A DNA stretch of 64,000 nucleotides from an uncultured Hormoscilla sp. Its GTDB lineage: Bacteria; Cyanobacteriota; Cyanobacteriia; Cyanobacteriales; Desertifilaceae. Shown here piece after piece: positions 6,855 to 45,011 of the stretch. Within the stretch, counting starts at the first letter, position 1; every line of letters begins with the position of its first letter. The stretch covers positions 6,624,001 to 6,688,000 of the forward strand of contig OZ001293.3 in assembly GCA_963921275.4 (NCBI GenBank), written 5' to 3'. Both the position numbers and the translations under genes were made by a program. The notes under the pieces were generated by a model that saw nothing but the letters and a program-made list of their open reading frames with translations, had not been told where the DNA came from and did no database searches.

Positions 6855-7725
6855 GTGCGATTCGTTCTAGCCTAACGTGGTCAAACACGGAACGCTAGCC
6901 CGGTTTCATTAGCCGGGAACTCTGACCGCATGGGGGTTAAATTCCCCTCCCCCCAGGTACGGGGGTGACACCGGTCCTCGGTGCTACGAAGCGACATCAT
7001 CGTGGTGCTAAGCGAGGACTCAAATGTAGGATAACTGGCAGCCTAAGCCGGTGACGCCGCTAGGAAAGATATCCAAGGTTAGAGCAGGCAAACATGTGCA
7101 AGCCTCGTTATAAGGAACCAGCGAAATAAGGCTATATGCGCTGGCCTAAAAAGGAAATGGTAGCTAGTATTAGTTTTAGACTCTGGCTAATATAGTACTC
7201 AAATAGCTCCCGGGGTATAGTGTGGACCTAAAGGTATCGCGAAATGTTGTTAGGGAACGAAGTAACCTCTCGTGTGCTGTCCATCAGGACAAGTTAGATG
7301 TTAAGCGCAAGCCACGGGGGGAGGGATGGCCCAAGAAGCGAATGCCCGGGGTAATTCCTGGGATAACATCTACAGTAATGTAGATGATGCTGGGTAGCCA
7401 GCGCTGACGTGGGTCGGTGATACTAGGAAGCTGCTGGAATGAGTAATCCTAAAAAGCCACGGAACTAATCCGAAACGCAAGTGGAGGATAAGGTATGGAT
7501 AACTGGTAAAACTGACTTGAAAATGGTGATACTAACGGTTATCAGAACAACCACTCGCTAAACCAGGAAAGGGAAGAAAAGACAGGCGGCAAGGGCTAAC
7601 GGAAGTAATTCCTATTAAGTCTACCTATGAAAAGGGCCTAGTACCCAGTAGCCGGATGCGGTGAAAATCGCAAGTCCGGTTCCTCAAGGGAGGGTCGGGA
7701 AGCGATTCCCGGCTCGACCCCATCC
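6855..7725 (+). mobile_element. ORF-less group II intron F, antisense inside the intron D ORF
   Basis: GTGCGATTCGTTCTAG start; DV tagccggatgcggtgaaaatcgcaagtccggtt; removal restores ETEIV|RHIKV. Confidence 0.9.
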
Positions 7726-9138
7726 GACTATTTCAGTTTCAGTGTAGCGGGCCAGTTTTACGATGTCTCCACCTTTTGTTTTTCCAGTGAACCTCCACCG
7801 GTCACTCCCGGTCAGGGCCCAATATTTTCTGGCAATCCATCTACCCGATTTGTTGGGATGCCTTCCCTTCGCCCATTGCCATAGCAATTCCCACAAGTGT
7901 TTATCCATAGAGCTGTAAGTGACCTTACTTACCACCGTTCTGAAATAGTTACTCCACCCCCTTATTACCGGGTTCAGTTTTGCTATCACAGCCTCCTGTG
8001 GTGCTCCTTTATGGCGGCGTACTATCTGCAATAGTTGCTCTTTATGATTTCTTATGGATTTGTCACTAGGCTTGATTATGGTTTTGAATCCTAGGAGGGT
8101 TCCGTGGCCATTTCTGCCGCTTTGATATTTTCCTACTCTGTATTGTCGGATGTTAAACCCTAGGAAATCAAATCCTGGGTTTTCTCCTTCCAGAGTGTGG
8201 GATATCCTCGTTTTCTCGGCTTTTAGCTCTAGTCCTATCTCCCTCAACCACTTTTCAATCACTCCTTGCGCCTTCTCTATCTTCGACCGGTCCTTATGCA
8301 TAACCACAAAGTCATCCGCATATCTTACTACGGTTAACTCATTTTCCTCTTCCTTTGTGCGGGCGAGTTCCATCACTACCCCTTCCAGCTCATGTAGAGC
8401 TATGTTGGCTAGTAACGGTGATATCACTCCGCCTTGAGGAGTCCCGGCTTCCGTGATTTCCAATTTCCCCCGGTCCATTACCCCGGCTTTTAACCATCCC
8501 CGTACTTGCTTACGGATTAATGATGTGGTATTCAATTTCTTTAGGAGTGCAGAATGATTGATTTTGTCAAAACACTTTGCAATATCCGCATCTAACACCC
8601 ACTTTGGTTTCCATTTGATGCTGAGGAATATTGCTGCAACCGCATCATGGCATCCTCTTCCTGGTCTGAATCCGTAGGAATTGGGTTCCATATACGCTTC
8701 CCATTCGGGCTCCAGCGCTTGTTTAACCAATCCTTGAAGCGCGCGGTCGTGCATCGTTGGTATTCCTAATGGCCGCTTCTCGTCCCTTCCTGGCTTCGGT
8801 ATCCACACTCGACGTGTGGGTTTTGCCTTTGCCTCTCTGGTAACTCTGAGTTGGCCTACCAGTTCTTGTCGCTGCTTTGGGGTCAATGCTTTAACACCAT
8901 CCACTCCTGCAGTCTTTTTTCCCTGGTTCTGTTGTATTACCTGCCGAACCGCTATCATCTTTGCGGACCATGACCTATTCAGTAACCCTTGGAGCTTGCG
9001 AACTTTCTGCTTATTGCCTTCCTGTGCCGCTCTGTAAATTCGTTTTTGCAGCTTAAAGACTACCTTCTCCAGCTTTCGCCAGGGGGTCGTCTTCCATTCA
9101 TACTCTTGTCTTTCGACTAAGTTCCGTGACATATTCAC
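7684..9138 (-). CDS. ltrA: Intron D RT/maturase, truncated before the endonuclease domain
   Basis: Full RT0-7 with RYADD and thumb; last 13 aa are read into intron F. Confidence 0.9.
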   Translation of the reverse strand: MNMSRNLVERQEYEWKTTPWRKLEKVVFKLQKRIYRAAQEGNKQKVRKLQGLLNRSWSAKMIAVRQVIQQNQGKKTAGVDGVKALTPKQRQELVGQLRVTREAKAKPTRRVWIPKPGRDEKRPLGIPTMHDRALQGLVKQALEPEWEAYMEPNSYGFRPGRGCHDAVAAIFLSIKWKPKWVLDADIAKCFDKINHSALLKKLNTTSLIRKQVRGWLKAGVMDRGKLEITEAGTPQGGVISPLLANIALHELEGVVMELARTKEEENELTVVRYADDFVVMHKDRSKIEKAQGVIEKWLREIGLELKAEKTRISHTLEGENPGFDFLGFNIRQYRVGKYQSGRNGHGTLLGFKTIIKPSDKSIRNHKEQLLQIVRRHKGAPQEAVIAKLNPVIRGWSNYFRTVVSKVTYSSMDKHLWELLWQWAKGRHPNKSGRWIARKYWALTGSDRWRFTGKTKGGDIVKLARYTETEIVGWGRAGNRFPTLP

Positions 9139-10335: not shown

Positions 10336-10582
10336 TACGCTCATCATAGTTACTTGCTCGGCGGTAACCGATTTTTGGCTTTCAGTCATTGCGCCTTTCC
10401 TTCCCGCTTCACGGATTGATGCCATCGCTACCGTGGGGAGGGTGCTGTCACTCCTGCACCTGGAGGGGTGGGCTTTCACCACCATCATCTATAAGTTCTC
10501 GGGGCTAATAAAACCCCGGTAGTGGTCCCCTTTATTGATTTTTTGACATGTGTCAAGTCATTTTACACTAAACGAATCGCAC

Positions 10583-11407
10583 GACTAGGTCGCCATTATA
10601 CGGGCTAGCTGTCCCTTTCACCTTTACGTGTCTGATTATCTCAGTCTTTGAGTGCTGGGTAAGCTCTATCTTCTCCTTGTACTTGGTTTTGCCGATGAAG
10701 TTCCACCAGACATCCTTGGTAAGAGTCCAGTAATTTCTGGCAATCCATTTGATCGATTTGTTGGGGTGCCTTCCCTTTGCCCATTGCCACAGCAGTTCCC
10801 ATAGGTAGTTGTCCATATCATTGTAAGTTTTCTTACTTATCACAGTCTTAAAGTAGTTACACCATCCCCGTATTACCGGGTTTAGCTTGGCTATCAGAGC
10901 TGCTTGTGGCGCTGATTTATGGCTGCGTACTATCTGGGATAGCCGCTCTTTATGTTTCCTGATGGATTTACTACTAGGCTTAATCAGTGTCTTGAATCCT
11001 AGGGGGGTTCCGTGGGTTGATTTACCGCTTCTGTATTTCCCTACCACATATTGTCGGATATTGAATCCTAGGAAATCAAATCCTGGATTTTCTCCTTCCA
11101 GCGTGTGGGATATCCTGGTTTTCTCGGCTTTCAACTCTAGTCCTATTCCCTTTAGCCAGTCGGAAATCACTCCTTTTGCTCGCTCAATCATTGACCGGTC
11201 GTCGTGCATTACCACAAAATCATCGGCGTATCTGACTATGGTCATCTTCCTCTTCTCTTCCCTTGTGCGAACTTTCTGCTTGTTGCCTTCCTGTGCCGCT
11301 CTGTAAATTCGCTTTTGTAGCTTAAAGACTCGGCGCTCCAGCTCTTGCCAGGGCACCTCCTTCCATTCATACTCTTGTCTTTCGACTGAGTTCCGTGACA
11401 TGTTCAC
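10583..11407 (-). pseudogene. ltrA: Intron C IEP, 5' segment with in-frame internal deletion
   Basis: GNKQKVR|TREEKRKMTIVRYADD; lacks about 213 aa relative to the D protein. Confidence 0.85.
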
Positions 11408-14981: not shown

Positions 14982-15911
14982 TTAGCGTTGGATAAAGTTG
15001 CGCGGTCCGGTATATCCAGACAAATCAGCGAGTTTGGACAAGGATTGCACGCCGGAATATAATTGGCCGTTGATTTCCCAAGTCGGAAAGCCCGTTATCC
15101 CAACGGTCTTGCAGAGTTCTGTCTGGGAAGAAAGCCCATCGGGCGCACATTCTATATAGTTGAGCAGACTCGCGGCTTCCGAACCAAACATCTGTTTCTG
15201 CTCGTGGCAGTGGGGACACCAGTAGGCACTATACTTTTTGGCCCTGATGTTTTTCAGATGACGGGCCAGAGCAATTTCTGCTGGTCCGGAAGTGGTAGTA
15301 ACTATTGGCGGTGCCTTTCGGTCTGTGACTGCGGGATTATTAACGATGGTGGGATTATCAACGTTGGCATAGACCCCTAAGGCCCCCACTAATGTCACAA
15401 TACCTACTACAACTCCAGTAAACAATAGCTGGCCGATGTCTTCCCAAGGGCGGCCAACCAAGGTCAGGACCAACATGCTCCCAGACAATAAAGCTGAGAC
15501 AACGCAGTAAGGACAGAAAGCCTCAATCTTGAAGGCCATGATATACATTAGGTAGCTGCTACCCACCGCCATCGCCGTGCCCCCCCCAAACAGCAGCAGC
15601 CAAGTCCAGCGTTCCAGGTTGTGCCGTAGTTCCTTGTTTTTGTCTGCATTAACTAGCAGGGGAGCGATCGCCATAATGGCCATGCTGGTGTAGCCTAGAA
15701 AGCCAAATAGGGTTAAAGGCTGTCCCAAAACGGTGGCATAGGGACTGGAAAGGACTTCCTTGCAGCCACTGGTAGGGCAGACAGCCGCAGCACTTCCCGT
15801 CAGTTCAGCTACCGTGAGCAAGGCAGTTTCTAAGGCTCCTATTATGGCGATCGCCCCGAGTAGCGGACGTGACCGACGATGCATTGGATTTGTAGAACGA
15901 CTCCGTTTCAT
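14982..15911 (-). CDS. Vitamin K epoxide reductase-thioredoxin fusion (SynDsbAB-like)
   Basis: CPTSGC..VLSSPYA, FCPYC, YWCPHC, GFPTWEING. Confidence 0.93.
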   Translation of the reverse strand: MKRSRSTNPMHRRSRPLLGAIAIIGALETALLTVAELTGSAAAVCPTSGCKEVLSSPYATVLGQPLTLFGFLGYTSMAIMAIAPLLVNADKNKELRHNLERWTWLLLFGGGTAMAVGSSYLMYIMAFKIEAFCPYCVVSALLSGSMLVLTLVGRPWEDIGQLLFTGVVVGIVTLVGALGVYANVDNPTIVNNPAVTDRKAPPIVTTTSGPAEIALARHLKNIRAKKYSAYWCPHCHEQKQMFGSEAASLLNYIECAPDGLSSQTELCKTVGITGFPTWEINGQLYSGVQSLSKLADLSGYTGPRNFIQR

Positions 15912-15920
15912 AATCCTCTC

Positions 15921-16411
15921 CTAAAATTGGCGCGATCCCCGGTAGCCTGATAAATTTGCTAGTTTTTCCAGAGATTGCGTGCCCGTGTATAATTTGCCAT
16001 TGATTTCCCATGCCTCCATCTCAGCTGCTTGGCAGACCTCTGCTGGGCGGGCCCAATGACCATTAGGCGAACATTCTATATAGTCGAGCTGGGCGATCGC
16101 CTGTTTGCCAAATGCTTCATTTTCTGCTTATGGCAGTGATGGCACCAATATGCGCCATACATCTTGGCTCCTATTTGCTGGAGATGTTGCGCCAGCGCTA
16201 TTTTAGCAGGACTTGAAGTTCTCCTAATGGGTTTTCCTCTATATCTCGAAGAGGATGCCACCGCCGGCACCCCAACAGTCCTTTCCCATACTACCGTACC
16301 GCAGAGGGCGATCGTTCCAAGGGCGATCGCGCCCATCAATAGCGATATCCACCGGCGATGGCGATTAATCCAGCAAGTGAATGGTCGATCCGGAGCGCAG
16401 CGTTCTCCCAT
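15921..16411 (-). pseudogene. Frameshifted paralog of the VKOR-type thioredoxin domain
   Basis: IALAQHL..IGAKMYGAYWCHHCHKQK, then other frames give YIECSPNG and WEINGKLY. Confidence 0.7.
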
Positions 16412-16670: not shown

Positions 16671-17981
16671 ATGAATGTGAATTTACAGACTTCAGATCCA
16701 GAGGTGTTTGCGATTATCAATCGAGAAAGCCAGCGTCAAAGAGATAACATTGAATTAATTGCGTCTGCTAACTTTACTAGCTGTGCTGTTCTGGAAGCAA
16801 CCGGTTCAATCCTGACCAACAAGGTGGCTGAAGGGTATCCCGGACGGCGCTACTTTAGCGGCTGCGAGAATATAGATGAACTGGAAAACTTGGCCATTGA
16901 ACGAGCAAAACAATTATTTGCAGCTGCCTATGCTAATCTCGAACCATACACCGGTTCCCAGGCAAATCACGCGGTTTACCTTACCGTACTCAAAAGGGGC
17001 GATCGCATCTTAGGGATGGATCCTTGTCATGGGGGTCATCCGAGCCATGGTGCGAAATTTACCATGACAGGTGAGCACTATGACTGTCATTTTTATCAAG
17101 TAGATCCAGATACCGAGCGTCTAGACTACGATCGCATTGAAGCCAAAGCGAAAGAGATTCGTCCTCAACTGATTATTGCTGGTGCGAGTGCCTATCCCCG
17201 CATCATTGATTTCCAACGCTTTCGGGAGATTGCTGATGCAGTCGGCGCGTTTTTATTGGCTGATATGGCCCACATCTGCGGATTAGTTGCCACTGGATTA
17301 CATCCTTCTCCCATTCCCCACGCTCATTTCGTCACCACTAGCACCCAGAAAACCTTGCGCGGACCGCGCAGTGGTATGATATTGCTGGGCGAACATTCCG
17401 CACCAGAATTTGCTCGCAAGATTGACAGATCCGTCTTTCCTGGGGTACAAGGCGCTGTTCACGTCCATGCGATCGCTGCTAAAGCGGTGATGCTAAAAGA
17501 AGCCATGTCTGGCAGCTTTGCGGCCTATCAACTTCAAACCCTCGAAAATACCAGGATATTAGCAGAAGATTTGATAGCAAGGGGATTTCACCTGGTTTCT
17601 GGCGGTACGGATAACCATCTGATGCTTCTGGATCTACGAGATAAAGGCATCACCGGTAAGGAGGCTGAAGATCGCTTAGCTAGCGTCAGGATTACCGTCA
17701 ATAAAAACATGCTTCCCTACGATTCCCAGAAGGTTACAGTATGCAGCGGCATCCGGGTAGGAACAGCCGCAATTACAACTAGGGGATTTGGTTCCAAGGA
17801 AATGCATTGCATTGCCGATCTGATCGATAAAATGCTGAGCAGCGAACCGACGGTTAGCACCATCACCAAGGTTCGAGAGGAAGTCAGTCGATTGTGCCAC
17901 CAACATCCTCACATCGATTCGATTTACTCAGAAGAGGGGGCAAAATTTACCCTCGAATCCCAATACCAACTTCAAAGTTAA
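16671..17981 (+). CDS. glyA: Serine hydroxymethyltransferase-family PLP enzyme (divergent)
   Basis: ELIAS, EGYPGRRY, ADMAH, KTLRGPR, SGGTDNH, NKN, SGIRVGT; several active-site substitutions. Confidence 0.85.
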   Translation: MNVNLQTSDPEVFAIINRESQRQRDNIELIASANFTSCAVLEATGSILTNKVAEGYPGRRYFSGCENIDELENLAIERAKQLFAAAYANLEPYTGSQANHAVYLTVLKRGDRILGMDPCHGGHPSHGAKFTMTGEHYDCHFYQVDPDTERLDYDRIEAKAKEIRPQLIIAGASAYPRIIDFQRFREIADAVGAFLLADMAHICGLVATGLHPSPIPHAHFVTTSTQKTLRGPRSGMILLGEHSAPEFARKIDRSVFPGVQGAVHVHAIAAKAVMLKEAMSGSFAAYQLQTLENTRILAEDLIARGFHLVSGGTDNHLMLLDLRDKGITGKEAEDRLASVRITVNKNMLPYDSQKVTVCSGIRVGTAAITTRGFGSKEMHCIADLIDKMLSSEPTVSTITKVREEVSRLCHQHPHIDSIYSEEGAKFTLESQYQLQS

Positions 17982-18045
17982 TCCCTTTCCCCAGCTCTTC
18001 TTTGCTTTGACTGCACATCGAAAAGATCAGAGATAAGTAGATTCT

Positions 18046-18936
18046 ATGACCACAACAGCCAACTCCGATTTTTCCGGAACGGTACAAGCCACAGAACGCG
18101 CCCGAGTACATTACAATAGTGAAAATGCACGGCTGGCGCCGCGCTGTCGCGATCGGAATTTGTATGAAATTGCCATTGGCAGCGACACATTAAATTTAGG
18201 CATGTACGAGGACGATCCAGACCGCTCCATTGCAGATGGTATGGCCAAAACCACTGAATGGATGGCAGAACAAGCGGAAAACCTCAATGCAGATTTCCGC
18301 GTCCTCGACCTAGGCGCCGGATATGGACCGGCGGCACGACATTTGGCCGGGAAATATGGCTGTCACGTCACCTGTCTCAATATTAGTGAAGAGCAAAATC
18401 AGGAAAATGAGCGGCGCAATCGCGAACGGGGTCTTGATAATCTGATTGACATTGTGTTCGGCAATTTTAAGGAAATTCCTTTTGACGATGCCAGTTTCGA
18501 TCTAGTATGGTCTCAGGATGTCCTGTTTCACACTGACGGACAAGATCGAGTCCTAGAAGAAGCCTATCGGGTACTCAAACCAGGGGGACAGTTACTGTTC
18601 ATGGATATTCTGCAAGCAGATGATTGTCCAGATGGAGCATTAAAGGATTCACTCGGGCGGGTTAATATTCTTCACGAGCGTATAGGCTCTTTCCATTCCT
18701 ATACCAGTAAAGCCGAAAGCCTGGGTTTTGAAACCATCAAGGTGATCGACAAATCCTACCAGTTGCTGGTCCATTACGCGAAATTGAGGGATTCTGTAAT
18801 AGAACATTACGAGGAACTCAGCCAAAAATGTACCCCAGAATTTTTGGAGTCTTCTAAGAATGGCTTATGTCAATGGGTGGAATCGGCTGAGAAAGGTATG
18901 TTTAAATGGGGTCTATTTCATTTTCGCCGTCCATAA
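18046..18936 (+). CDS. Sarcosine/dimethylglycine N-methyltransferase-like SAM methyltransferase
   Basis: VLDLGAGYG, CLNISEEQN, WSQD, RVLKPGG, WGLFHFR. Confidence 0.85.
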   Translation: MTTTANSDFSGTVQATERARVHYNSENARLAPRCRDRNLYEIAIGSDTLNLGMYEDDPDRSIADGMAKTTEWMAEQAENLNADFRVLDLGAGYGPAARHLAGKYGCHVTCLNISEEQNQENERRNRERGLDNLIDIVFGNFKEIPFDDASFDLVWSQDVLFHTDGQDRVLEEAYRVLKPGGQLLFMDILQADDCPDGALKDSLGRVNILHERIGSFHSYTSKAESLGFETIKVIDKSYQLLVHYAKLRDSVIEHYEELSQKCTPEFLESSKNGLCQWVESAEKGMFKWGLFHFRRP

Positions 18937-19018
18937 GTAAGTTTTTGTCGATCGATAGGTAATAGTAGGGTGGGGAATGCCCACCCTACTCCCTGTGGTG
19001 TATTTTAAAGTACAGAAC

Positions 19019-19829
19019 ATGAATGCTCAAGAAGTTGTCAAAACTAATCAGAACTTGAAATACCAGTACGATAATGACATAGCCGATGTGTTTGAAGAGT
19101 ACCTCCAGACCGACTATCGGAGGGCCGCAAAGGAGCTATTTGTAGCAGCGGTTGGTGATGTGGAGGGTCAACGGGTACTAGAGCTATCCTGCGGAACCGG
19201 CTCCATCGCGCGAGGACTCAAGCAGGCTTATTCGTCAGCGAGCATTGTTGGCAGCGATATCAGCAGTGGAATGATCGCCAAGGCACAGGAAATAGAAGCT
19301 GCCGAGCCTTTGGGGATTCAATATCTCGTGGGGGATGCCATGACCCAGGGAGCTGTGGACGGTGGCAACTATGATGTCGTGGTTGCCCACTGCCTGTTTT
19401 GTTATGCCAAGGACAAGACAGAACTCCGGAGTATGGTGCAAACTTGTTATGATAACCTCCGTCCAGGGACGTCTGGTTTTAGCGGTTAATAATGATGTAT
19501 GGACGCGAACAAGCATAAAGCGGCCTTACAGAGCGGGCGTTTCCATCTTTCAGGCTTCAACCAGTGGGCGCGACCCTGCAGACACTCAGGAAGGCGAGCA
19601 GTGCGAGTGTAATGTGAAGCTACCAGACGGGCAAATGGAGACATCTTGGCATTATCACTGGGAAGAGCAAACCTGCCTACAGATGCTCTCAAGCGTCGGT
19701 TTTTCCCAAGCAAAGCTCGAACCTTTCACTCTGGAACTTGTGCCAGCTTCTCAGAGGTTCGATCCTGGATATACATCCTTTGTTGATTTTCCCTTCTCAA
19801 CCATTCTTCGTGCGTGGAAACCAGAGTAG
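19019..19829 (+). pseudogene. Class I SAM methyltransferase, frameshifted near 19468
   Basis: VLELSCGTG, GSDISSGMI; NLRPG|RLVL split across frames at a short G run. Confidence 0.75.
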
Positions 19830-20058
19830 TAATCAAGAACAGGACTATTGCCCAACTTCGGGAAAAATGATATAGCAGTTCTCAGATTAGTGTGATATGT
19901 TGTAGGAGATTGCTTCGGGGGGTAACTCTAGAAAAGCATAAGTTACTCGCTAGTCTCCCCCCCTCGCAATGACAAATAAACGATTATGCTGTACCACATC
20001 AATTTTAAAAATGCTATAACCAACCATCAATTATCAGAAATTGCTTAGAAATACTGTA

Positions 20059-21393
20059 ATGAACGCTCAAGAAATTGTCAAAACTCATCGCAACCACGTC
20101 TTTTTTTCCTGGGTACCTCAGAAAAATATCCAAAATCCCATAGTTATGGATCGTGCTGAGGGGGTTTACTTCTGGGATAAAGACGGCAAAAAGTACCTGG
20201 ATTTTTCCAGCCAGTATGTCAATATGAATATTGGCCACAGTCACCCCAAGGCGATCGCAGCCATAAAAGACCAAGCCGATCGACTCGCGTTCGCCCATCC
20301 GGGTACGGCCACAGAAATTCGTGCGGCAACAGCAGCTAAGTTAGCTGAAATTACACCAGGGGATCTGAGCAAGGTTTTCTTTACCCTGAGTGGGGCTGAA
20401 GCGATTGAAAATGCCATTAAAATAGCCCGTATGTATACGGGACGGCATAAAATAGTTAGCCGATATCGCAGCTATCATGGCGCTACCCTCGGTGCCGCGA
20501 TCGCGGGAGGAGACCCCAGACGCTTAGCTCACGAACCTACTATTAGCGGGATAGTTCGGGTTCACGACCCCTATGCCTACCGTTGCCCTTTTGGCTACGC
20601 ACCGGAAGGAAATCCCCAAGTTTACATCGATCACGTGATTCAAACCATTGAGTTTGAGGGGCCCGAAAACGTGGCGGCGATCCTGATGGAAACTATTACT
20701 GGTTTCAACGGCGTTATTATTCCCCCCGATGGTTACTGGCAAGCCCTGCGGGAATATGCTGACCAGCACGGCATCTTGCTGATTTGTGACGAAGTTATAG
20801 CAGGATTTGGTCGCACGGGGAAAATGTTTGCGATCGAGCATTATGGAGTGGTTCCCGATATTATGGCGATGGCTAAGGGACTCACCTGCGGGTATATTCC
20901 TATGGGTGCGGTGATAGTACGACAGCAAATCGCCGATTATTTTGAAACCAACCCCTTTGTTTGCGGGCTTACCTTTAGCGGTCATCCCATCGGTTGCGCT
21001 GTTGCCCTGGCGACAATGGAGGTTTATGAAGAAGAAAATCTGGTGGAAAATAGCCGGCTTATGGGAATACGCATGGCAGAAAAGCTAGAGGAAATGAAGG
21101 CCAAGCATCCATCGGTGGGAGATGTCCGCAGTTTAGGACTTTATGGAGTCATAGAATGCGTGAAGAATCGAGAAACACGAGAACCGATGGCCCCTTGGAA
21201 TGCCAAACCCCACGAAATGGTGGTTATGGGTAAAGTTGCTGCCCGTCTTCGGGAGCTGGGTCTGCACGGTCTCGTGCGCTGGAACTGGGTGTTTATGTCC
21301 CCCCCACTTTGCATCAATGAAGAGCAGCTTGAAGAAGGCTTTGCTATAATTGACGATGCTTTGAAAATTGCTGATGCCGCCTACGTTGGTTAA
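20059..21393 (+). CDS. Class III PLP aminotransferase
   Basis: GKKYLDF, SYHGAT, LICDEVIAGFGRTG, PDIMAMAKG. Confidence 0.93.
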   Translation: MNAQEIVKTHRNHVFFSWVPQKNIQNPIVMDRAEGVYFWDKDGKKYLDFSSQYVNMNIGHSHPKAIAAIKDQADRLAFAHPGTATEIRAATAAKLAEITPGDLSKVFFTLSGAEAIENAIKIARMYTGRHKIVSRYRSYHGATLGAAIAGGDPRRLAHEPTISGIVRVHDPYAYRCPFGYAPEGNPQVYIDHVIQTIEFEGPENVAAILMETITGFNGVIIPPDGYWQALREYADQHGILLICDEVIAGFGRTGKMFAIEHYGVVPDIMAMAKGLTCGYIPMGAVIVRQQIADYFETNPFVCGLTFSGHPIGCAVALATMEVYEEENLVENSRLMGIRMAEKLEEMKAKHPSVGDVRSLGLYGVIECVKNRETREPMAPWNAKPHEMVVMGKVAARLRELGLHGLVRWNWVFMSPPLCINEEQLEEGFAIIDDALKIADAAYVG

Positions 21394-21421
21394 TAAGCCC
21401 ATCACGATATGAAATAGGAGA

Positions 21422-22282
21422 GTGACCATGCGGATTGGATTTATTGGTCTTGGTAATATGGGCAGTGGGATGGTTGCTAATCTGCTCGCTCGAGGGTTTG
21501 ATGTTTCAGTGTACGATATCCAACCAGAAAAAGCAGAAGCCTTAATAGCAGCTGGAGCTGTTTGGCGCAATTCTATCCCGGAGGTGACAGAGGATGCTGA
21601 TGTCATTATGACCAGTCTGCCAGGACCGAAGCAACTGGAATCTGTGATGTTGGGAGATGCTGGAGTTATTGCTCGCGCAAGATCGGGAGCGGTTTGGCTC
21701 GATACGGGAACCAATTCAATAGAAATCATGGAAAAGATTTCGACCCTTGCTGGAGAACGAGACATCTCCTCTATTGCTGCGCCTGTTTCAGGGGGGGCAA
21801 AGGGGGCTGAAACTGGTACTCTATCCATGTTTGTTGGCGGCGATCGAGAGACCTTTGACAAAATTAAAGGGATATTGGAAGCCATTGGTTCCCAAATTTA
21901 TCATGTGGGGCCACTTTCCCATGCCATCCTTTCCAAGTTGTTGATCAATTATCTGTGCTTCATTAATACCAAAGCCCTGGGCGAGGTACTGTCCTTGGGC
22001 AGAGAAGCAGGAATTGACCCGCAGCAACTGACAAAGATGATTCAAGCGGGTTCGGGGAGTAGCTGGGTGGCAGAAAAATTGCTTCCTTCTATTTTAGAAG
22101 GGAATCCAGGACCTGCTTTTACCTTGAACTTAGCTCACAAGGATGCCTGTTTGATTGATGAACTCAATCAAACATTTAAAACATCTTTAGAATTTTCAGA
22201 GCGTCTGTCTGAGGTATTACGACAGGCTTGTGCGACCTATGGTGGGGATAAAAGTTTTACTCGGATGATGGACTTGCAGTAG
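21422..22282 (+). CDS. NAD(P)-dependent oxidoreductase, beta-hydroxyacid dehydrogenase family
   Basis: IGFIGLGNMG, APVSGG, SKLLIN, FTLNLAHKD. Confidence 0.9.
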   Translation: MTMRIGFIGLGNMGSGMVANLLARGFDVSVYDIQPEKAEALIAAGAVWRNSIPEVTEDADVIMTSLPGPKQLESVMLGDAGVIARARSGAVWLDTGTNSIEIMEKISTLAGERDISSIAAPVSGGAKGAETGTLSMFVGGDRETFDKIKGILEAIGSQIYHVGPLSHAILSKLLINYLCFINTKALGEVLSLGREAGIDPQQLTKMIQAGSGSSWVAEKLLPSILEGNPGPAFTLNLAHKDACLIDELNQTFKTSLEFSERLSEVLRQACATYGGDKSFTRMMDLQ

Positions 22283-22295
22283 GAAGGAGAAAGCG

Positions 22296-23483
22296 ATGAG
22301 TCATGGTAAATTGGTGATGGACCTTTCCCAAGGGATATACAAGCTATCCAAAGTCCAACAAGACAACAGCAAGCTGTTCGTCTATTGGGGCGACGGTCAT
22401 CGGAGTACCTTTCACTATATTTGGCTAAGGGATAACTGTTATTGCACTCTGTGCGGGAACCCTAGACATGGAGAAAAGCGTTTTCGGATCGTTGATGTTC
22501 CCTTAGACATAGAACCACTGTCAGTTCATGTAGATAGTGACAACACACTTAAAATCTCATGGTCACCCGACAACCATAACAGCGTTTATGATGCTCGGTG
22601 GTTGCGACAGCACTGCTATTCTGCGACCGAGAGAGAGCATCGCCAGCATCGACCCATTCTTTGGGATAGCAAGATTGTAACTAGCCTGCCGCAGATTGCC
22701 TATGAACAAGTCCTCGGTGGAGATGCGGGTCGGTTGCAACTGCTAGAACATCTGAGAAATTATGGGATTTGTTTTGTGCGAAACGTACCTCCTCAAACGG
22801 TCGAACTCGAAGGATTCGCCCAGTCATTTGGTCCCTTATTAGAGACTAATTACGGACGTATGTTCGAGATTGTTGTAGACCCAGAGTCAAGCCAGAAAAG
22901 TGTTGCAAACTCCCAACTTGACCTCATACTCCACACGGATGATGCCTATCAATATGCACCACCGGGAATTATTTTCTTCCATTGTATAATGGCAAATGAC
23001 GATGGCAGCGGTCAGTCTACCTTTGTGGATGGCTTTAAAATAGCAGAGGTGCTATGTCAGGAGGATTCGGAGGCGTTCGATATACTCTGTCGTTACGAGG
23101 TTCCTTTCCGAAAATATTACAGCGATCGCATTGATATGCAGTTTAGCAGTCCGGTTTTTGGCTTAGATAGTGGTGGTAATTTGAAGGAAGTTCGGATTAG
23201 CAATCTATTTCCCGCTCCCTTGGACTTGCCAGAGGAGATTATCGAGCCATTTTATGCCGCATACAGAAAGCTAATGCAGCTGATTACCGATCCAAGATAC
23301 TGCCTGAAACAAGGTATGCAACCAGGAGACCTGGTGATATTTGATAACCATCGTATCCTGCACGGGCGCACTGCAATCGGGAGGCAAAATCAGCGCCGCC
23401 ATTTGCGCTACTGTTCGGTAGACTGCGACTATTTCCATAGCTGGCGACGACTTCTTGAGAAGAATCTCAGCTTTCGGGGATAG
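22296..23483 (+). CDS. Gamma-butyrobetaine/trimethyllysine dioxygenase-like Fe(II)/2OG enzyme
   Basis: WLRDNCYCTLC N-terminal Zn domain, HTD, FVDGF, FDNHRILHGR. Confidence 0.9.
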   Translation: MSHGKLVMDLSQGIYKLSKVQQDNSKLFVYWGDGHRSTFHYIWLRDNCYCTLCGNPRHGEKRFRIVDVPLDIEPLSVHVDSDNTLKISWSPDNHNSVYDARWLRQHCYSATEREHRQHRPILWDSKIVTSLPQIAYEQVLGGDAGRLQLLEHLRNYGICFVRNVPPQTVELEGFAQSFGPLLETNYGRMFEIVVDPESSQKSVANSQLDLILHTDDAYQYAPPGIIFFHCIMANDDGSGQSTFVDGFKIAEVLCQEDSEAFDILCRYEVPFRKYYSDRIDMQFSSPVFGLDSGGNLKEVRISNLFPAPLDLPEEIIEPFYAAYRKLMQLITDPRYCLKQGMQPGDLVIFDNHRILHGRTAIGRQNQRRHLRYCSVDCDYFHSWRRLLEKNLSFRG

Positions 23484-24111
23484 GTTGCAAATCGGGAATG
23501 GCTTGGCGGAGTTTCGAGAAGGACCAGGCATCTTCGCGCAATAGCCGAGCCGTTGACCCTGTAAAGTCAACAAGGGTAGAAGGTTGTTGTTCGGGGTTTG
23601 GCCCTCCATCCAGAACCAGTGGAACTCGCTCTCCCAATTGTGCGGCAACTTCAGGGGCTGTTTTCTGAGTCTCCATCCCTGAGATGTTAGCACTGGTTAC
23701 GGCCAGGGGATCGCCAATCCGACGCACCAATTCCAAACAAAGCTGATGGTTGGGTATTCGGACTGCTACAGTATTCTGACCTGATGTCACAAATGATGGG
23801 ACAATTTCAGTCTTGCCGAAGATGCCAGACATGGCCCCCGGCCAAATTTTTCGGAGTTCCGAAAGCGTACTTTTGGGAATTTCTTGGGTCACAAGTTGCA
23901 GTTGTTCAAAACTAGCTACATAAATTATGAGCGGTTTCTGGGGCGATCGGGATTTAACCTCAAAAATCTTTTTAAAGCCCGATTCCCGAGCTATGCTGGC
24001 TCCAATCCCATAAATCGTATCGGTTGGGAATACGACCACATCGCCCTTTTTCAGCAACTCCACTGCCTTGCTTACGGCTGCTTGATTATCAACTGGTAAA
24101 ATTTCTATCAT
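23467..24111 (-). CDS. tsaC: L-threonylcarbamoyladenylate synthase (Sua5/TsaC)
   Basis: FPTDTIYG, KSR..KPL, WPG, AVRIP, TSANISG. Confidence 0.9.
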   Translation of the reverse strand: MIEILPVDNQAAVSKAVELLKKGDVVVFPTDTIYGIGASIARESGFKKIFEVKSRSPQKPLIIYVASFEQLQLVTQEIPKSTLSELRKIWPGAMSGIFGKTEIVPSFVTSGQNTVAVRIPNHQLCLELVRRIGDPLAVTSANISGMETQKTAPEVAAQLGERVPLVLDGGPNPEQQPSTLVDFTGSTARLLREDAWSFSKLRQAIPDLQPIPES

Positions 24112-29341: not shown

Positions 29342-30010
29342 TTGACAAGTATGATAGAATTGGATATGAAAGATGAACCACAGGGAGTTTGTTATACAAC
29401 GGCTTTGGAAAAAGTGAGCCAGAGAATTAAGCCTGGAGATGCGATCGCTTTCTCTGGTAAAGGCGTTAATGGCATGGTGATTAGATGGTTCACGGCTAGC
29501 CTGTACAGCCAGATCGCCATTGTTATGGATACCGATCGGCATTGTACTACCCAAGGTACCATCGCGCTCGCAGAAGTCTCAAGTTACACGGGTTTACTCG
29601 ATTTCAGAAATGAAAAATGCAACTCGGGAGTACAAATTCACTATCTGTGGAATTGGATAAACGCTTATCGAGATTGCGGACAAGCCTGGTGGATCCCCTT
29701 AGCACAACCATTAAGCGAGTCAGGGGTAAAGAAAATGCAAGATTGGCTGTGGGAAATTCACGATCGACAAGTGTCTTTTGGCTTATGGAAGTCTATTTGA
29801 GCCGGGCTGAAAATTAATCGATATTTGGTCAGTACGGATAGCCAATATGCCGCACGCTACGCGAAAAATCGACTTTTTTGTTCGGAACTGGTGACAAAGG
29901 CCCTGCAAATTACCGAAGCGATCGATCCTGCGGTTCGGTCTTACCAACAAACACCGCACGAAATCATCAGCTTTCCCTGTTTTCAATCTCCAATTCTCAT
30001 TGAAATTTAA
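29342..30010 (+). pseudogene. Permuted papain-like amidase (YiiX-like), internal stop at 29800
   Basis: KPGD.I.F, IRWFT.S.YS, LFCSELV. Confidence 0.6.
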
Positions 30011-30023
30011 TGTCATTATAATT

Positions 30024-31226
30024 ATGTATCGACGCTTTACGAACCTTAAGGATATCTGGCGCGATCTAGCTTTTTCATGGTTACATCAAAACAATCTGGT
30101 TTACGTCACTTGCTGGGAGGATCCGAGACTGGATAGAGTAGCATTGAACCTCCAAGTAGAGGATACCATGCTTGTGATTACTTCAGCCGGTTGTAATGTA
30201 CTAGAATACGCTCTCGATCAACCGAAAAAAATTTACGCAGTTGATATTAATCCCAAGCAGAATGCGTTGCTAGAACTCAAGATTGCGGCCATTAGAGAAC
30301 TGGAATTTGAGTCTTTCTTCCAGATGTTCGGTTGTGGTAAGTTAGCAGGGTTTGGTGAAATATATTCCCAAAAACTGCGATCGCACCTCTCTTTATCTTC
30401 GAGAGACTATTGGGACAAATATGGCACAAGATTTTTTGCCGGAAACCGCTCCTTTTACTTTCGGGGGACAACCGGTAATTTAGCCCGTGGGATGTCATAC
30501 TATATCGATCGCATTCTGAAAATTCGACCGAGTTTCGATGCCATTTTAAGGGCCGAGACGATTGAGGAACAAAAGGAAATTTACGATCGCGACCTAGCCC
30601 CAGTATTTTGGAAAGACTATATCTCCAGTTTAATGAACAGCGATATAGGACTTTGGATGTTGGGTGTTCTCATACAGCAACGACGGCAAATGGAGCGCTA
30701 TTTAGAAGGAGATGTCGTCGAGTTTGTACAACAATGCTGCGAAAAAGTTTGTACTCAAATTCCTCTTAAGGATAATTATTTTTGGCGATTAATTATTAAT
30801 GGATAATCTTCTTTAAATTGCTGTCACAAATACCTAGAAGAAGAGAATTTTAATGCTCTCAAGTCTGGTTTAGTAGATCGCATTTCGATCCATACTAATA
30901 GCGTTACAGGCTTTCTGAAAAACTGTCAAGAGCGCATTTCTCGCTTCGTGCTTCTAGACCACATGGATTGGTTGCACGATCGCTACGAGGAATTACAACA
31001 AGAATGGCAAGCAATCCTGAATCAATCTCAGAACAAAACTCGCATTCTGTTTCGCAGTGGTGCATTTAAGGTAGAATACATAGATCCAATTGAAGTTATC
31101 TACCAAGGTGCATCTCGAAGGGTGGGAGAATTGTTGACGTACCAAACCGAACTTGCTCGAGAATTGCACTCAAAAGATCGAGTTCAAACCTATGGTAGTT
31201 TTTACATTGCAGATCTAGAAGTTTAG
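30024..31226 (+). pseudogene. btaA: BtaA (DUF3419) betaine-lipid 3-amino-3-carboxypropyltransferase, internal TAA at 30804-30806
   Basis: CWEDPRLD, ITSAGCN, AVDINP.QN.LLELK, DNYFW, LLDHMDW, DRV.TYGSF. Confidence 0.85.
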
Positions 31227-31323
31227 TCTGTAGGACGGGCAGGACGTCTGTCAGTTGCGTACCAGGTCCACCAGTTATCGGCCTGGTGCGCGGTCATTGG
31301 TCATTTATTGGAGAGATGAAAAG

Positions 31324-32058
31324 ATGGCGAGTTTAACAGATATTGCTCGTGATTTGAAAGTCCTTTATCATCTGGTTAAACCGACGGAAGGCGATACCCA
31401 TCAGGAAAGATTGGAAAACTTTTATCGGGGTCAAGCAACGGGTTACGATCGCTTTCGTCAGCGTTTGCTTTCTGGACGAGAACAACTCTATCGATCGCTA
31501 ACTGAATACGATGGCAAACAGTGGGTAGATCTGGGCGGCGGTACGGGGGTAAATTTTGAAGCTATAGGCGATCGCCTATCCCAGTTTGGTAAAATATATA
31601 TCGTGGATTTATGTCCTTCCTTGTTAGAAGTGGCCCGAGAGCGAAAGGCAGATCGGGGTTGGACAAACGTAGAAGTCATAGAAGCAGATGTGACTCAATT
31701 CTTACCTCCAGAAGGGGCTGCTGATATCGTCACTTTTTCTTATTCCTTAACGATGATTCCTGACTGGTTTGCTGCCATAGAACAAGCTTACAAAATTATT
31801 AAGCCCGGAGGAATTGTTGGGGTTGTAGATTTTTACGTTTCTCGCAAGCATCCTCCCGATGGATGGCAAAAAAATTCTTTCTTTGATCGCACATTTTGGC
31901 CAATTTTGTTTGCAAGTGACAATGTTTTTCTCTCTCCCGATCGCGTTCATTTTCTACATCACTACTTTCAACCTATCTCTTTTACGGAAAATATGGCCAG
32001 AATTCCTTTCCTACCTGGACTTAAAGTTCCCTATTATACCTTTATCGGACAAAAATGA
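31324..32058 (+). CDS. btaB: BtaB-type SAM methyltransferase (betaine lipid)
   Basis: RLENFYRGQA..YD.FR.RLL.GRE, WVDLGGGTG, FSYSLTMIPDW, GVVDFYV. Confidence 0.82.
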   Translation: MASLTDIARDLKVLYHLVKPTEGDTHQERLENFYRGQATGYDRFRQRLLSGREQLYRSLTEYDGKQWVDLGGGTGVNFEAIGDRLSQFGKIYIVDLCPSLLEVARERKADRGWTNVEVIEADVTQFLPPEGAADIVTFSYSLTMIPDWFAAIEQAYKIIKPGGIVGVVDFYVSRKHPPDGWQKNSFFDRTFWPILFASDNVFLSPDRVHFLHHYFQPISFTENMARIPFLPGLKVPYYTFIGQK

Positions 32059-42721: not shown

Positions 42722-45011
42722 ATGGCATCGCGACTCTGGAGGTTCTTAAACACGGACATTCGAGAATTGTTCTCCGCCGAAACCATCACCGATTTTTCCG
42801 GAACGGTGGGGACGGAAGCAGCAGGGGCAGTCTTAGAATTGGCCAATACCCTGCAAGAAGAAGGTCCTAATGTCCAACAATTAGCGCTATTAGTGGGGAA
42901 GATTTCTACCTTACTGGATGTTTTGAACTCGCCCTTAGGGGAAATTGTCGGGGCGGGACTGCCTTTTGTCTCGATGGCGGCGAAACTGCTAGGGTTTTAC
43001 CTGGAAAAAACTCAAAAGCCGCCCACGCTAGAACAATGCGTCGCCCTTGTCAGTCAAGCAGCTTATCTGGAAAGCTTGAAGGGATTTCTTAAAGATGAGG
43101 ATCTGTTAAGTCGCATCGGCCAAACTCCGGTTTCCGCATCCGTAAAACAAAAAATTAAACAGTTATCCGAGTTGGAACTGGATGAGGATGACGCTAGGAA
43201 AGCAGTGGTTTGCTTCCATGACTGTAAATTGGCAGAAGCATTTGGTCAAGTGCTGTTCGCACGATTGCAAGATGCAGGACTAGAACCGGCAGAAGCTGAG
43301 ATTTTAACGGCGCGAGTAGCTGGGAATACTTATCGCTATATGATGTCAGCTTGGGCCGAGTCGGGGGAAGCTGTCCCACATCTCGGAAGGACAGCAGCAG
43401 TGGTTGGGAAAATGGGAAGCGATTTTCGGTAGGGAGAAAAGGGAAGCATTTGAGGCATTTTTGCAAGACAGGTGCTGTCCGGAACGGGTGCAGGAAAAAT
43501 GTGGCCAGGAACCGCTATTGTTGTATCTGTTGGCAGCAATGCACCGAGATGGGGAGTTGCAAGTAGATGATTTTGATGGTGCCAGCAGTACGGGCGCGAA
43601 AATCTTGATTTACGAGCAGTTTTTGGATTGGGTGCTGACAAAGCAGCGTCCGGAATGGCTGCAACGGGAGTTAACCGAACAGGAAATAGAAGATTGGCGG
43701 CGCATTCTTTCGGAAGCAGGGTTGTGCGTGGTGCAGTCAGGATGGGAGTTTGCTTCTGTAAAGGAGATCGAGTCCCGTCTGAAACAGGATGAAGGGGCGA
43801 AGGCGTTACTGGAAGAGGCGCAAAAAGGCATTGGCGACGATCCTTTGCGAAATGCATTGGTAGCTTTTTATATTCAGAAAGGCAGTCAAGAAGGTTCGGT
43901 GCAGTTCACCCACAAGAGTTTTGGCGAGTTTTTATGTGCAGATCGCCTCAAGGAAAGTATACTTGACTGGACAGAACGGAGTCGGAGACGTAAAAAGTTT
44001 AATATCCAAGAGGAACAACTGCATTGGGAAATATACGACTTGCTGGGATACGGGGCCCTGACGCCAGAAATTGTGGAATATCTGATGGGGTTGCTGACTG
44101 CTAGCGAGTATTTTTGCCCTGTGGAGTTGTTTGAGCGGTTGAAGGATTTCTATTTCCGCTGGTGTGAAGGGGAATTTATAGACGCGCCGCCAGAAAACCT
44201 ACCTCAGGAAAAGATGCGGCAACTGCGCGAGCAAGGAATTCAGCTCGGTTTGCTACAGGTGGACGTATATGCTGGACTGAACGCGATGATTCTCTTATTG
44301 GAGTTGCACCGCTATGCTCAGAAGAGGAGTAATCTGAAAGATAAGATTGTTTTCTATCCTTGTGGGGAACCAAACCCTGAAGGCGAACTTGACGATCCAA
44401 CGCTGTTTTTACGCATTATCGGTTATAGCTGTTGTATTGGCAATTGGGGTTTTTGCTACACCGTTGGGCAATTCCTCAGTGGCGCAAATCTTAAGAAAGC
44501 AGACTTCAGTGACGCAAACCTCAGTGACGCAAACCTCAGTGACGCAGACCTCAATGAGGCAAACCTCAGTGGCGCAAACCTCATAGAGGCTGACCTCAGT
44601 GGCGCAAACCTCATAGAGGCTGACCTCAGTGGCGCAAACCTCTATAAGGCTGACCTCAGTGACGCAGACCTCATTGATGCAAACCTCATAGAGGTAAGCC
44701 TCGGTGACGCAGACCTCAGCCGCGCAAACCTCAGTGACGCAAACCTCATTTGCGCAAACCTCTATGAGGCTGACCTCAGTGACGCAGACCTCACTGATGC
44801 AAACCTCATCGAGGCTTACCTCGATGACGCAGACCTCAGCCGCGCAAACCTCAGTGACGCAAACCTCATTAGCGCAAACCTCGGTGGCGCAAACCTCAGC
44901 GACGCAAATCTTAAGAAAGCAGACCTTCGTTGCGCAAACCTCATTAGCGCAAACCTCAGTAGCACAGACCTCAGCGACGCAAAACTTGAGGAAGCAAACC
45001 TCAGGAGTGCA
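42722..45011 (+). pseudogene. Pentapeptide-repeat protein (NACHT-associated type), exon 1; frameshift/deletion near 43400
   Basis: PLLLYLLA, FTHKSFGEFL, long A(D/N)LxX repeats; no Walker A seen. Confidence 0.75.

Follow-up and report, generated by a model that had tools for sequence, protein, structure and literature searches.

What does the six-gene cluster that begins at position 16,671 of this stretch of DNA make? The stretch (the window) comprises 64,000 nucleotides of contig OZ001293.3 from an uncultured Hormoscilla sp., and the cluster encodes a serine hydroxymethyltransferase paralogue (SHMT), an SDMT-like N-methyltransferase (MT1), a class III aminotransferase (AT), a β-hydroxyacid dehydrogenase (HAD), a GBBH-family Fe/2-oxoglutarate dioxygenase (DOX), and a paralogue of TsaC/YrdC (YrdC) (Table 1). 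These enzymes probably build a quaternary carbon, convert an alcohol to an amine, and methylate nitrogen. For the product we tentatively propose a dysibetaine-type α,α-disubstituted amino-acid betaine, most likely dysibetaine itself. A first-pass annotation, made from the sequence alone, had proposed carnitine- or guanitoxin-like logic and held that the product could not be named. The chemistry probably differs from that proposal, and the caution about the product was excessive, as a named and testable candidate exists.

Whether the genes belong together was judged from related loci. An MT1 scan of species genomes gave 22 loci and a metagenome scan added 12 close ones, for a total of 34 (L086 duplicates L037); the other 65 of the 77 metagenome loci were dropped before counting as distant methyltransferases of at most 36% identity. 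Flanking sequence sufficed to judge synteny in 17 of the 34 loci, the other 17 being too short, and all six core genes are present in 16 of these 17, counting one (L030) in which DOX is an 80-residue remnant. The exception, L036, has SHMT and MT1 only, and a genome of the same genus (L038) has the other four genes together. All 22 species-genome loci are cyanobacterial. Their carriers include Hormoscilla, Moorena, Symploca, Caldora, Dapis, Lyngbya, Crocosphaera, Cyanothece, Richelia, Calothrix, Scytonema, Prochloron, and Paraprochloron, which are mostly marine, and others without a genus name. Orthologues of AT and YrdC occur in an identical set of eight among 401 genomes of the order, a count in which related genomes are not independent, and a phylum-wide draw of 400 genomes held no further YrdC orthologue. 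Non-cyanobacterial synteny was seen only in L088 and L089, whose proteins are labelled gammaproteobacterial, and in the short L090; in L088 and L089, YrdC lies upstream of SHMT, and AT and HAD form a single 759-residue protein. MT1, YrdC, and SHMT each make up one tight subfamily in which Thiomargarita and Endobugula proteins are included, and the MT1 subfamily also takes in Nitrospira-labelled proteins. The ratio of nonsynonymous to synonymous substitution (dN/dS) is 0.05–0.23 in two pairs of related loci, the nearest named loci (Hormoscilla) are 92–97% identical to the window in nucleotide sequence across the genes, and a plasmid search returned a single match of 37%. The gene unit is co-conserved far beyond chance, and the cluster is a real, rare, and horizontally spread set of six genes.

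These comparisons bear out much of the first-pass annotation. It had described co-oriented SHMT, SDMT-like methyltransferase, AT, HAD, and GBBH-like dioxygenase genes, and all five are intact open reading frames (ORFs) of those families that are co-conserved in the synteny comparison. Its six-gene set stands for these five core genes; its sixth member, a second methyltransferase (MT2), is an accessory gene found in 5 of the 34 loci and is frameshifted here, and the sixth core gene, YrdC, was overlooked. Its view of the locus as an uncharacterised pathway outside polyketide and nonribosomal peptide synthesis, likely leading to a methylated amine or betaine, is upheld in that we found no match to a characterised cluster. 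The full-text literature searched, a body that leaves out supplements and most subscription papers, yielded neither a paper describing this cluster nor a pathway to dysibetaine.

The first chemical step is suggested by the SHMT paralogue, which is 52% identical to a second, housekeeping SHMT in the same genome. Residue positions follow Escherichia coli numbering. In the cluster copies, the canonical glycine-pocket residues Glu36, Tyr55, Tyr65, and His228 are replaced by Ala, Val, Phe, and Gln. The full set of changes (E36A, Y55V, Y65F, H228Q, G263A, and L265H) is present in 23 of 23 cluster copies and in none of 96 ordinary SHMTs, all 96 of which keep both Tyr55 and Tyr65. A wider comparison placed 23 of the 24 top homologues in a single clade that shares the pocket changes, and all 24 retain the pyridoxal phosphate (PLP) lysine, Arg363, Asp200, His126, Glu57, and the folate-site residues Tyr64, Phe257, and Asn347. 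Loss of both glycine-pocket tyrosines together with a preserved folate site points away from retro-aldol cleavage and towards the forward reaction, hydroxymethylation of a D-amino acid. Published precedents agree with this direction. The positions of Tyr55 and Tyr65 are Thr and His in α-methylserine hydroxymethyltransferases, and the Y55T substitution opens SHMT to D-Ala and D-Ser (PMC6411801); PbzB no longer gave its product once both tyrosines had been restored, and the formation of α-tertiary amino acids is described as a sought-after biocatalytic reaction (PMC13351049). We predict from sequence that the SHMT paralogue is a folate-dependent α-hydroxymethyltransferase that builds a quaternary carbon from a D-amino acid whose side chain is neither methyl nor hydroxymethyl. 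In one locus, that of Moorena producens 3L, folK, a dihydrofolate-reductase SDR gene (TmpR family), and a split folP lie directly behind the cluster (L035:15308-17828). An AlphaFold model of the paralogue had a mean pLDDT of 57 and was not used.

The characterised α-alkylserine hydroxymethyltransferases (α-methylserine hydroxymethyltransferase, FmoH of JBIR-34, and PbzB of benzobactin) likewise combine an SHMT fold and retained PLP and folate sites with replacement of both glycine-pocket tyrosines. The cluster enzyme differs from them in three ways. First, it has Val and Phe where they have Thr and His, a comparison made by described positions. Second, it carries further invariant changes (E36A, G66S, H228Q, G263A, and L265H). 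Finally, FmoH and PbzB supply nonribosomal peptide synthetase (NRPS) lines, whereas the cluster enzyme is accompanied by stand-alone enzymes for redox, amination, methylation, and adenylation. It is thus predicted to work like the α-alkylserine enzymes but to belong to a different subfamily.

The AT and HAD are candidates for converting the new alcohol to an amine. The best Protein Data Bank (PDB) match of AT is taurine:2-oxoglutarate aminotransferase (6JIX), at 386 bits versus 283 for the next entry, and by analogy this closeness suggests an amine β to an acid group. AT is 89–97% identical among the cyanobacterial loci, and its motifs (the PLP lysine and an aspartate) are invariant in 28 sequences. 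In HAD, the catalytic Lys172 and Asn176, the GxGxxG motif, and the substrate loop are invariant in 23 sequences, and the best of 16 PDB matches is 2-hydroxymethylglutarate dehydrogenase (3CKY). The substrate of that enzyme, 2-hydroxymethylglutarate, is the des-amino analogue of the substrate we propose for HAD, which weakly favours a glutamate-derived product. Fusion of AT to HAD in L088 and L089 is in keeping with successive steps rather than with two competing fates of one aldehyde. We considered dabABC as a precedent for conversion of an alcohol to an amine, and its mechanism is different (PMC10906522).

MT1, the putative N-methyltransferase, has 2O57 as its nearest PDB match, scores below the cut-off of the SDMT model NF041675, and is not nested among SDMTs. 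It belongs to the same methyltransferase superfamily as Tery_2447, the Trichodesmium homoserine methyltransferase (PMC5864184), and the GSMT and SDMT enzymes of glycine betaine synthesis, the superfamily members compared being about 37–44% identical to it. It has an altered substrate motif and falls in its own long-branch clade (support 1.0), apart from both the fused GSMT-SDMT proteins and a second single-domain clade. In DOX, the iron triad (His213, Asp215, and His356) and the 2-oxoglutarate-binding Arg368 are invariant in 20 sequences, as are Asp216 and Arg371, and the nearest PDB entries are DfmD, TmpA, and BBOX. Its scores nevertheless fall below the NCBIfam cut-offs for GBBH (287 against 415 bits), TMLD (199 against 268), and TmpA (274 against 400).

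The remaining core gene, YrdC, was recognised as the sixth recurrent gene by clustering the neighbours of the loci. It is present in 22 of the 34 loci, at varying strand and position, and its linkage to the cluster survives inversions and holds in L089 too. Across 56 orthologues, the KxR, SxN, and amino-acid-binding residues show little or no variation. PF01300 has more matches elsewhere in the genome, two of them full-length; their presence and the restricted distribution of the orthologue argue that the cluster copy is not the housekeeping enzyme for the tRNA modification t6A. We likewise rejected the possibility that it is a chance housekeeping neighbour, given the conserved linkage and the other YrdC-family genes. 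At about 30% identity to the carriers' other family members, the copy appears from its sequence to derive from a distant lineage. It shares its conserved ATP and amino-acid motifs with TsaC/Sua5 and with the YrdC domains of HypF and TobZ/CmcH, and passes TIGR00057. Unlike them, it stands alone as an additional copy associated with a small-molecule cluster, and the loci showed no Kae1/TsaD partner. In this genome, YrdC is convergent with the other genes and so cannot share an operon transcript with them.

We hypothesize the following pathway, in a tentative order. The SHMT paralogue would hydroxymethylate glutamate, as D-glutamate, at the α carbon with folate. The resulting α-hydroxymethyl amino acid is a β-hydroxy acid, the substrate type of HAD enzymes, and HAD would oxidise its CH2OH group to give an unstable β-oxo acid. 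The fused or adjacent AT would capture this as a β-amino acid (CH2NH2), a Toa-like substrate type. MT1 would then add three methyls to the primary amine, and DOX would place a hydroxyl at C4, probably before methylation. Finally, YrdC would use ATP to adenylate the γ-carboxylate in place of carbamate, leading to closure of the lactam ring. We infer the forward hydroxymethylation of a D-amino acid and the series from alcohol through aldehyde to amine from knowledge of the enzyme families. The choice of D-glutamate, the three methyls, the C4 hydroxyl, and the action of TsaC on the γ-carboxylate are proposed because they fit the structure of dysibetaine, which we take to be 4-hydroxy-2-(trimethylammoniomethyl)pyroglutamate.

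Each of the six steps from glutamate to dysibetaine or deoxydysibetaine pairs with one gene family of the cluster, and the carriers include symbionts of the sponge group from which the compound came. Dysibetaine is titled an α,α-disubstituted amino-acid derivative from Dysidea herbacea (PMC4656251), deoxy and 4-epi forms are named (PMC10820836; PMC11193748), and a synthesis of deoxydysibetaine went via 2-hydroxymethyl pyroglutamate (PMC2866466). Hormoscilla is a symbiont of the sponge genus Dysidea, and the Hormoscilla genome paper cites sponge betaines among compounds without a known producer (PMC6520454). The link is retrosynthetic only, and the cluster occurs far more widely than dysibetaine has been reported. 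A fuller scenario, held more tentatively than the product itself, is that the cluster is the missing dysibetaine-type pathway, with TsaC as a stand-alone ATP-dependent ring-closing enzyme, a new SHMT subfamily acting on glutamate, and a product that is an overlooked compatible solute or signal, passed by gene transfer among reef cyanobacteria (Moorena, Symploca, Caldora, Dapis, Crocosphaera, Richelia, Prochloron, and Hormoscilla) and other marine bacteria.

Several observations weigh against the assignment to dysibetaine. First, glutamate is assigned by fit to the structure: the Val/Phe pair of the SHMT paralogue differs from the characterised Thr/His pair and backs a substrate other than glycine, not glutamate in particular, and the lead of 3CKY over other members of the HAD family is small (152 versus 146.5 bits). 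Second, trimethylation by the MT1 clade is a prediction by analogy. Third, DOX lacks three of the five aromatics of the trimethylammonium cage of BBOX (Y194 to N, Y205 to D, and Y366 to S), and with that cage mostly lost, DOX probably does not act on a betaine as BBOX does. Fourth, the YrdC paralogue retains the standard TsaC motifs, and in the accessible part of the source the fold is described as a maker of carbamoyl-AMP only, with no precedent for lactam formation found there (PMC6594144). Fifth, Lendenfeldia chondrodes has also been used as the name of the sponge that yields dysiherbaine, whose symbiont is then given as Synechocystis-type (PMC7412112), which makes the match to a Hormoscilla source loose. 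In the literature searched, itself partly accessible, we found no report of dysibetaine from Moorena, Symploca, or other carriers. Finally, the window's own copy of the cluster carries possibly damaging changes, described below.

The main rival shares the first steps and lets YrdC perform the usual chemistry of TsaC, forming an N-carbamoyl-AMP from amino acid, CO2, and ATP. The new β-amine or β-hydroxyl would close this intermediate to a cyclic urea or oxazolidinone, so that glutamate or another D-amino acid would yield an undescribed heterocycle bearing N-methyl and hydroxyl groups. Such an outcome is unlikely but must be taken seriously. The conserved TsaC motifs of the 56 orthologues and the score above the TIGR00057 cut-off are what it would require, an α-substituted serine resembles threonine, and a dioxygenase without a betaine cage suits it. 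A carbamoylase-family amidohydrolase also lies about 6 kb upstream of the cluster in L089, a single locus in which the gene is on the opposite strand with a transposase between. Against this, the nearest family to MT1 makes quaternary amines, which are unable to close a urea, and the HAD match favours, weakly, a glutarate-like skeleton. We also know of no marine metabolite that fits a product of this kind.

The carnitine- and guanitoxin-like route of the first-pass annotation fares worse. Here, DOX would β-hydroxylate an amino acid, the SHMT-like enzyme would cleave it to glycine and an aldehyde, and the aldehyde would be aminated or reduced and then methylated. The enzyme families fit in outline, SHMTs are known to catalyse retro-aldol cleavage, and the invariant Asp216 and Arg371 of DOX could hold a free amino acid. 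The cluster also resembles carnitine biosynthesis (TMLD, aldolase, dehydrogenase, and BBOX) in combining a GBBH-family dioxygenase bearing a zinc domain with an SHMT-family PLP enzyme and methylation. However, it has a single dioxygenase, which scores below both cut-offs and has lost most of the aromatic cage, and HAD and AT stand where an aldehyde dehydrogenase would be expected. The guanitoxin cluster, composed of gntA–J, similarly unites a dioxygenase, a PLP-dependent C–C enzyme, an aminotransferase, and an N-methyltransferase in one cyanobacterial cluster. In contrast to that cluster, the PLP enzyme here is an SHMT, and DOX, at 20 bits on the GntD model (cut-off 345), is not a GntD member. 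Four distinct carrier genomes contained no GntD above cut-off, and the arginine oxidase, cyclodehydratase, kinase, and N-hydroxylase of gnt were not among the recurring neighbours of the cluster, where they were looked for rather than genome-wide. The glycine-pocket tyrosines are gone in every cluster copy, while the folate site is kept and folate genes adjoin one cluster. Retro-aldol cleavage also provides no joint role for a fused AT-HAD and none for YrdC. We consider it improbable.

Slightly less probable again is a role in self-resistance or tRNA modification, in which the other five enzymes would make a mimic of threonine or serine and the TsaC copy, perhaps with the SHMT copy, would confer resistance or form a modified t6A-type tRNA base. 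In its favour, the TsaC and SHMT copies each duplicate an essential gene of the genome, and the YrdC copy keeps normal motifs. Its distant lineage argues against this role, the changes in SHMT are those of a new catalyst, and neither a TsaD nor a TsaB paralogue was seen among the recurring neighbours. Least probable of all is one of the simple osmolytes already known (glycine betaine, homoserine betaine, or trimethyltaurine): the SDMT-like MT1, taurine-aminotransferase-like AT, TmpA/BBOX-like DOX, largely marine named carriers, and lack of GgpS/OtsA in four carriers would suit one, but MT1 is a clade of its own, three carriers (G401, G402, and G458) already have other GSMT-SDMT or SDMT-like enzymes, and a remodelled SHMT, a dioxygenase, and TsaC would all be superfluous for these solutes. 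Homoserine betaine was dropped as a product on the same grounds; in the family to which the genome of L034 belongs, the other SDMT-like clades are 30–44% identical to MT1. β-N-methylamino-L-alanine, made via serine and diaminopropionate, was set aside because it needs no remodelled SHMT, dioxygenase, or YrdC.

With dysibetaine as the leading candidate, the cluster links an orphan sponge metabolite to candidate genes in a hypothesis open to direct testing, and Moorena producens 3L is a cultured carrier. Whatever the product, two enzymes look functionally new: an SHMT subfamily whose pocket is distinctive, and a free-standing TsaC paralogue linked to small-molecule synthesis. The product likely serves as a compatible solute or is a small metabolite for export, and the cyanobacteria that carry the cluster are abundant benthic and symbiotic ones. 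The GgpS/OtsA model had no match in the four distinct carrier genomes checked, a search that did not extend to the sucrose and TreYZ routes, and this suggests that the product may be an unrecognised pool of methylated nitrogen on reefs.

The genes that vary between loci comprise a sulfotransferase, a PLP decarboxylase, and an EamA transporter (four loci each), together with an SDR, a glyoxalase, and extra oxygenases; this variation suggests one scaffold with variable tailoring. The sulfotransferase gene (Sulfotransfer_5) lies between HAD and DOX in L018 (14281-15024), L019, L025, and L034, which suggests a sulfated variant of the product. A 653-residue PLP decarboxylase-family gene between MT1 and AT in L022, L028, L083, and L087 may mark a decarboxylated variant, and L028 and L083 have SDR and glyoxalase genes further along the cluster. 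The EamA transporter genes follow DOX. In L016 and L080 (6227-8048), the DOX-YrdC pair has moved en bloc upstream of SHMT with its convergent overlap retained.

The copy of the cluster in this strain may be partly decayed. Relative to intact orthologues, MT2 is broken by a 2-base deletion near 19465-19469 that splits it into two ORFs; it is whole in two of the loci that have it, among them L018, with an intact orthologue of 284 codons. The likely first nine codons of MT2 (19019-19045) and AT (20059-20085) are identical at 25 of 27 bases, as if the MT2 gene had been inserted by duplicating the start of AT. MT1 carries two in-frame insertions missing from 19 of 19 aligned homologues and from sister loci. 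The main contig holds 180 exact copies of the 15-base insertion, compared with a median of one for 200 random 15-mers, and 13 copies of the 24-base insertion at up to two mismatches. The dispersed repeat of about 20 bases around the 15-base core also occurs at positions 42793 and 47334 of the window. Gap-free identical contigs from read runs X1 and X2 span the MT2 frameshift, and identical contigs from X1–X3 contain the MT1 insertions. Sequencing error is rejected as far as the read contigs show, with the caveat that the runs may come from the sample that gave the window. Changes private to the window include L118P and L124P in the folate loop of SHMT, where all 24 top homologues and all 96 ordinary SHMTs have Leu; a substitution next to the first iron ligand of DOX; and G194D in YrdC, at a position that is Gly in all 55 orthologues compared. 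On the window lineage, SHMT and YrdC have dN/dS values of 0.68 and 0.70 (Fisher p = 0.024, for genes chosen after the fact), and the private amino-acid changes per gene are inside the range of other orthologues.

Table 1. Genes and insertions of the cluster, in positions of the window.
Feature	Position	Strand	Family evidence or remark
SHMT paralogue (core)	16671-17981	+	PF00464, 507 bits
MT1, SDMT-like S-adenosylmethionine-dependent N-methyltransferase (core)	18046-18936	+	NF041675, 248 bits, below cut-off 550
15-base in-frame insertion in MT1	18069-18083	+	Piece of short dispersed repeat
24-base in-frame insertion in MT1, N-terminal region	18129-18152	+	Short dispersed repeat
MT2, second methyltransferase (accessory, pseudogene here)	18977-19829	+	Two overlapping ORFs, 18977-19489 and 19362-19829
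AT, class III (omega/beta) aminotransferase, PRK06062 subfamily (core)	20041-21393, likely start 20059	+	NF004718, 540 bits, cut-off 472
HAD, β-hydroxyacid dehydrogenase (core)	21422-22282	+	PF03446 and PF14833
DOX, GBBH-family Fe/2-oxoglutarate dioxygenase, N-terminal zinc domain (core)	22296-23483	+	PF02668 and PF06155
YrdC, stand-alone TsaC/YrdC (Sua5) paralogue (sixth core gene)	23467-24111	-	TIGR00057, 179.5 bits, cut-off 123.2

The G+C content of the cluster is the same as that of the rest of the genome, which contains no close second copy of its genes apart from the housekeeping SHMT. A promoter and terminator scan of the locus was uninformative. Just upstream of the cluster, 16076-16411 partly duplicates the neighbouring VKOR gene (14982-15911), in its C-terminal thioredoxin-like portion. 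Sponge-symbiont relatives contain tandem pairs of other GBBH-like dioxygenases, 31–33% identical, that possibly belong to a second small-molecule cluster (G028:C1:3634226-3638027; G003:C10:16668-19223; G004:C4:389-3482; G002:C2:2776977-2780775); in this genome they are matched by fragments only. A 31-kb contig of the assembly (C3) has a G+C content of just 17.6% and is probably foreign to the organism. Further along the window, at 30000-32058, a DUF3419 gene precedes a methyltransferase gene, a gene pair known for synthesis of the betaine lipid diacylglyceryl-trimethylhomoserine (DGTS). The DUF3419 gene is BtaA-like and apparently truncated or split, its 268 codons covering profile positions 7-247 of 385. 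The window also contains three ORFs for group II intron reverse transcriptase/maturases (93-1871, 7684-9138, and 10568-11407), the first kind bearing an HNH domain, another truncated, and the third carrying an internal deletion.

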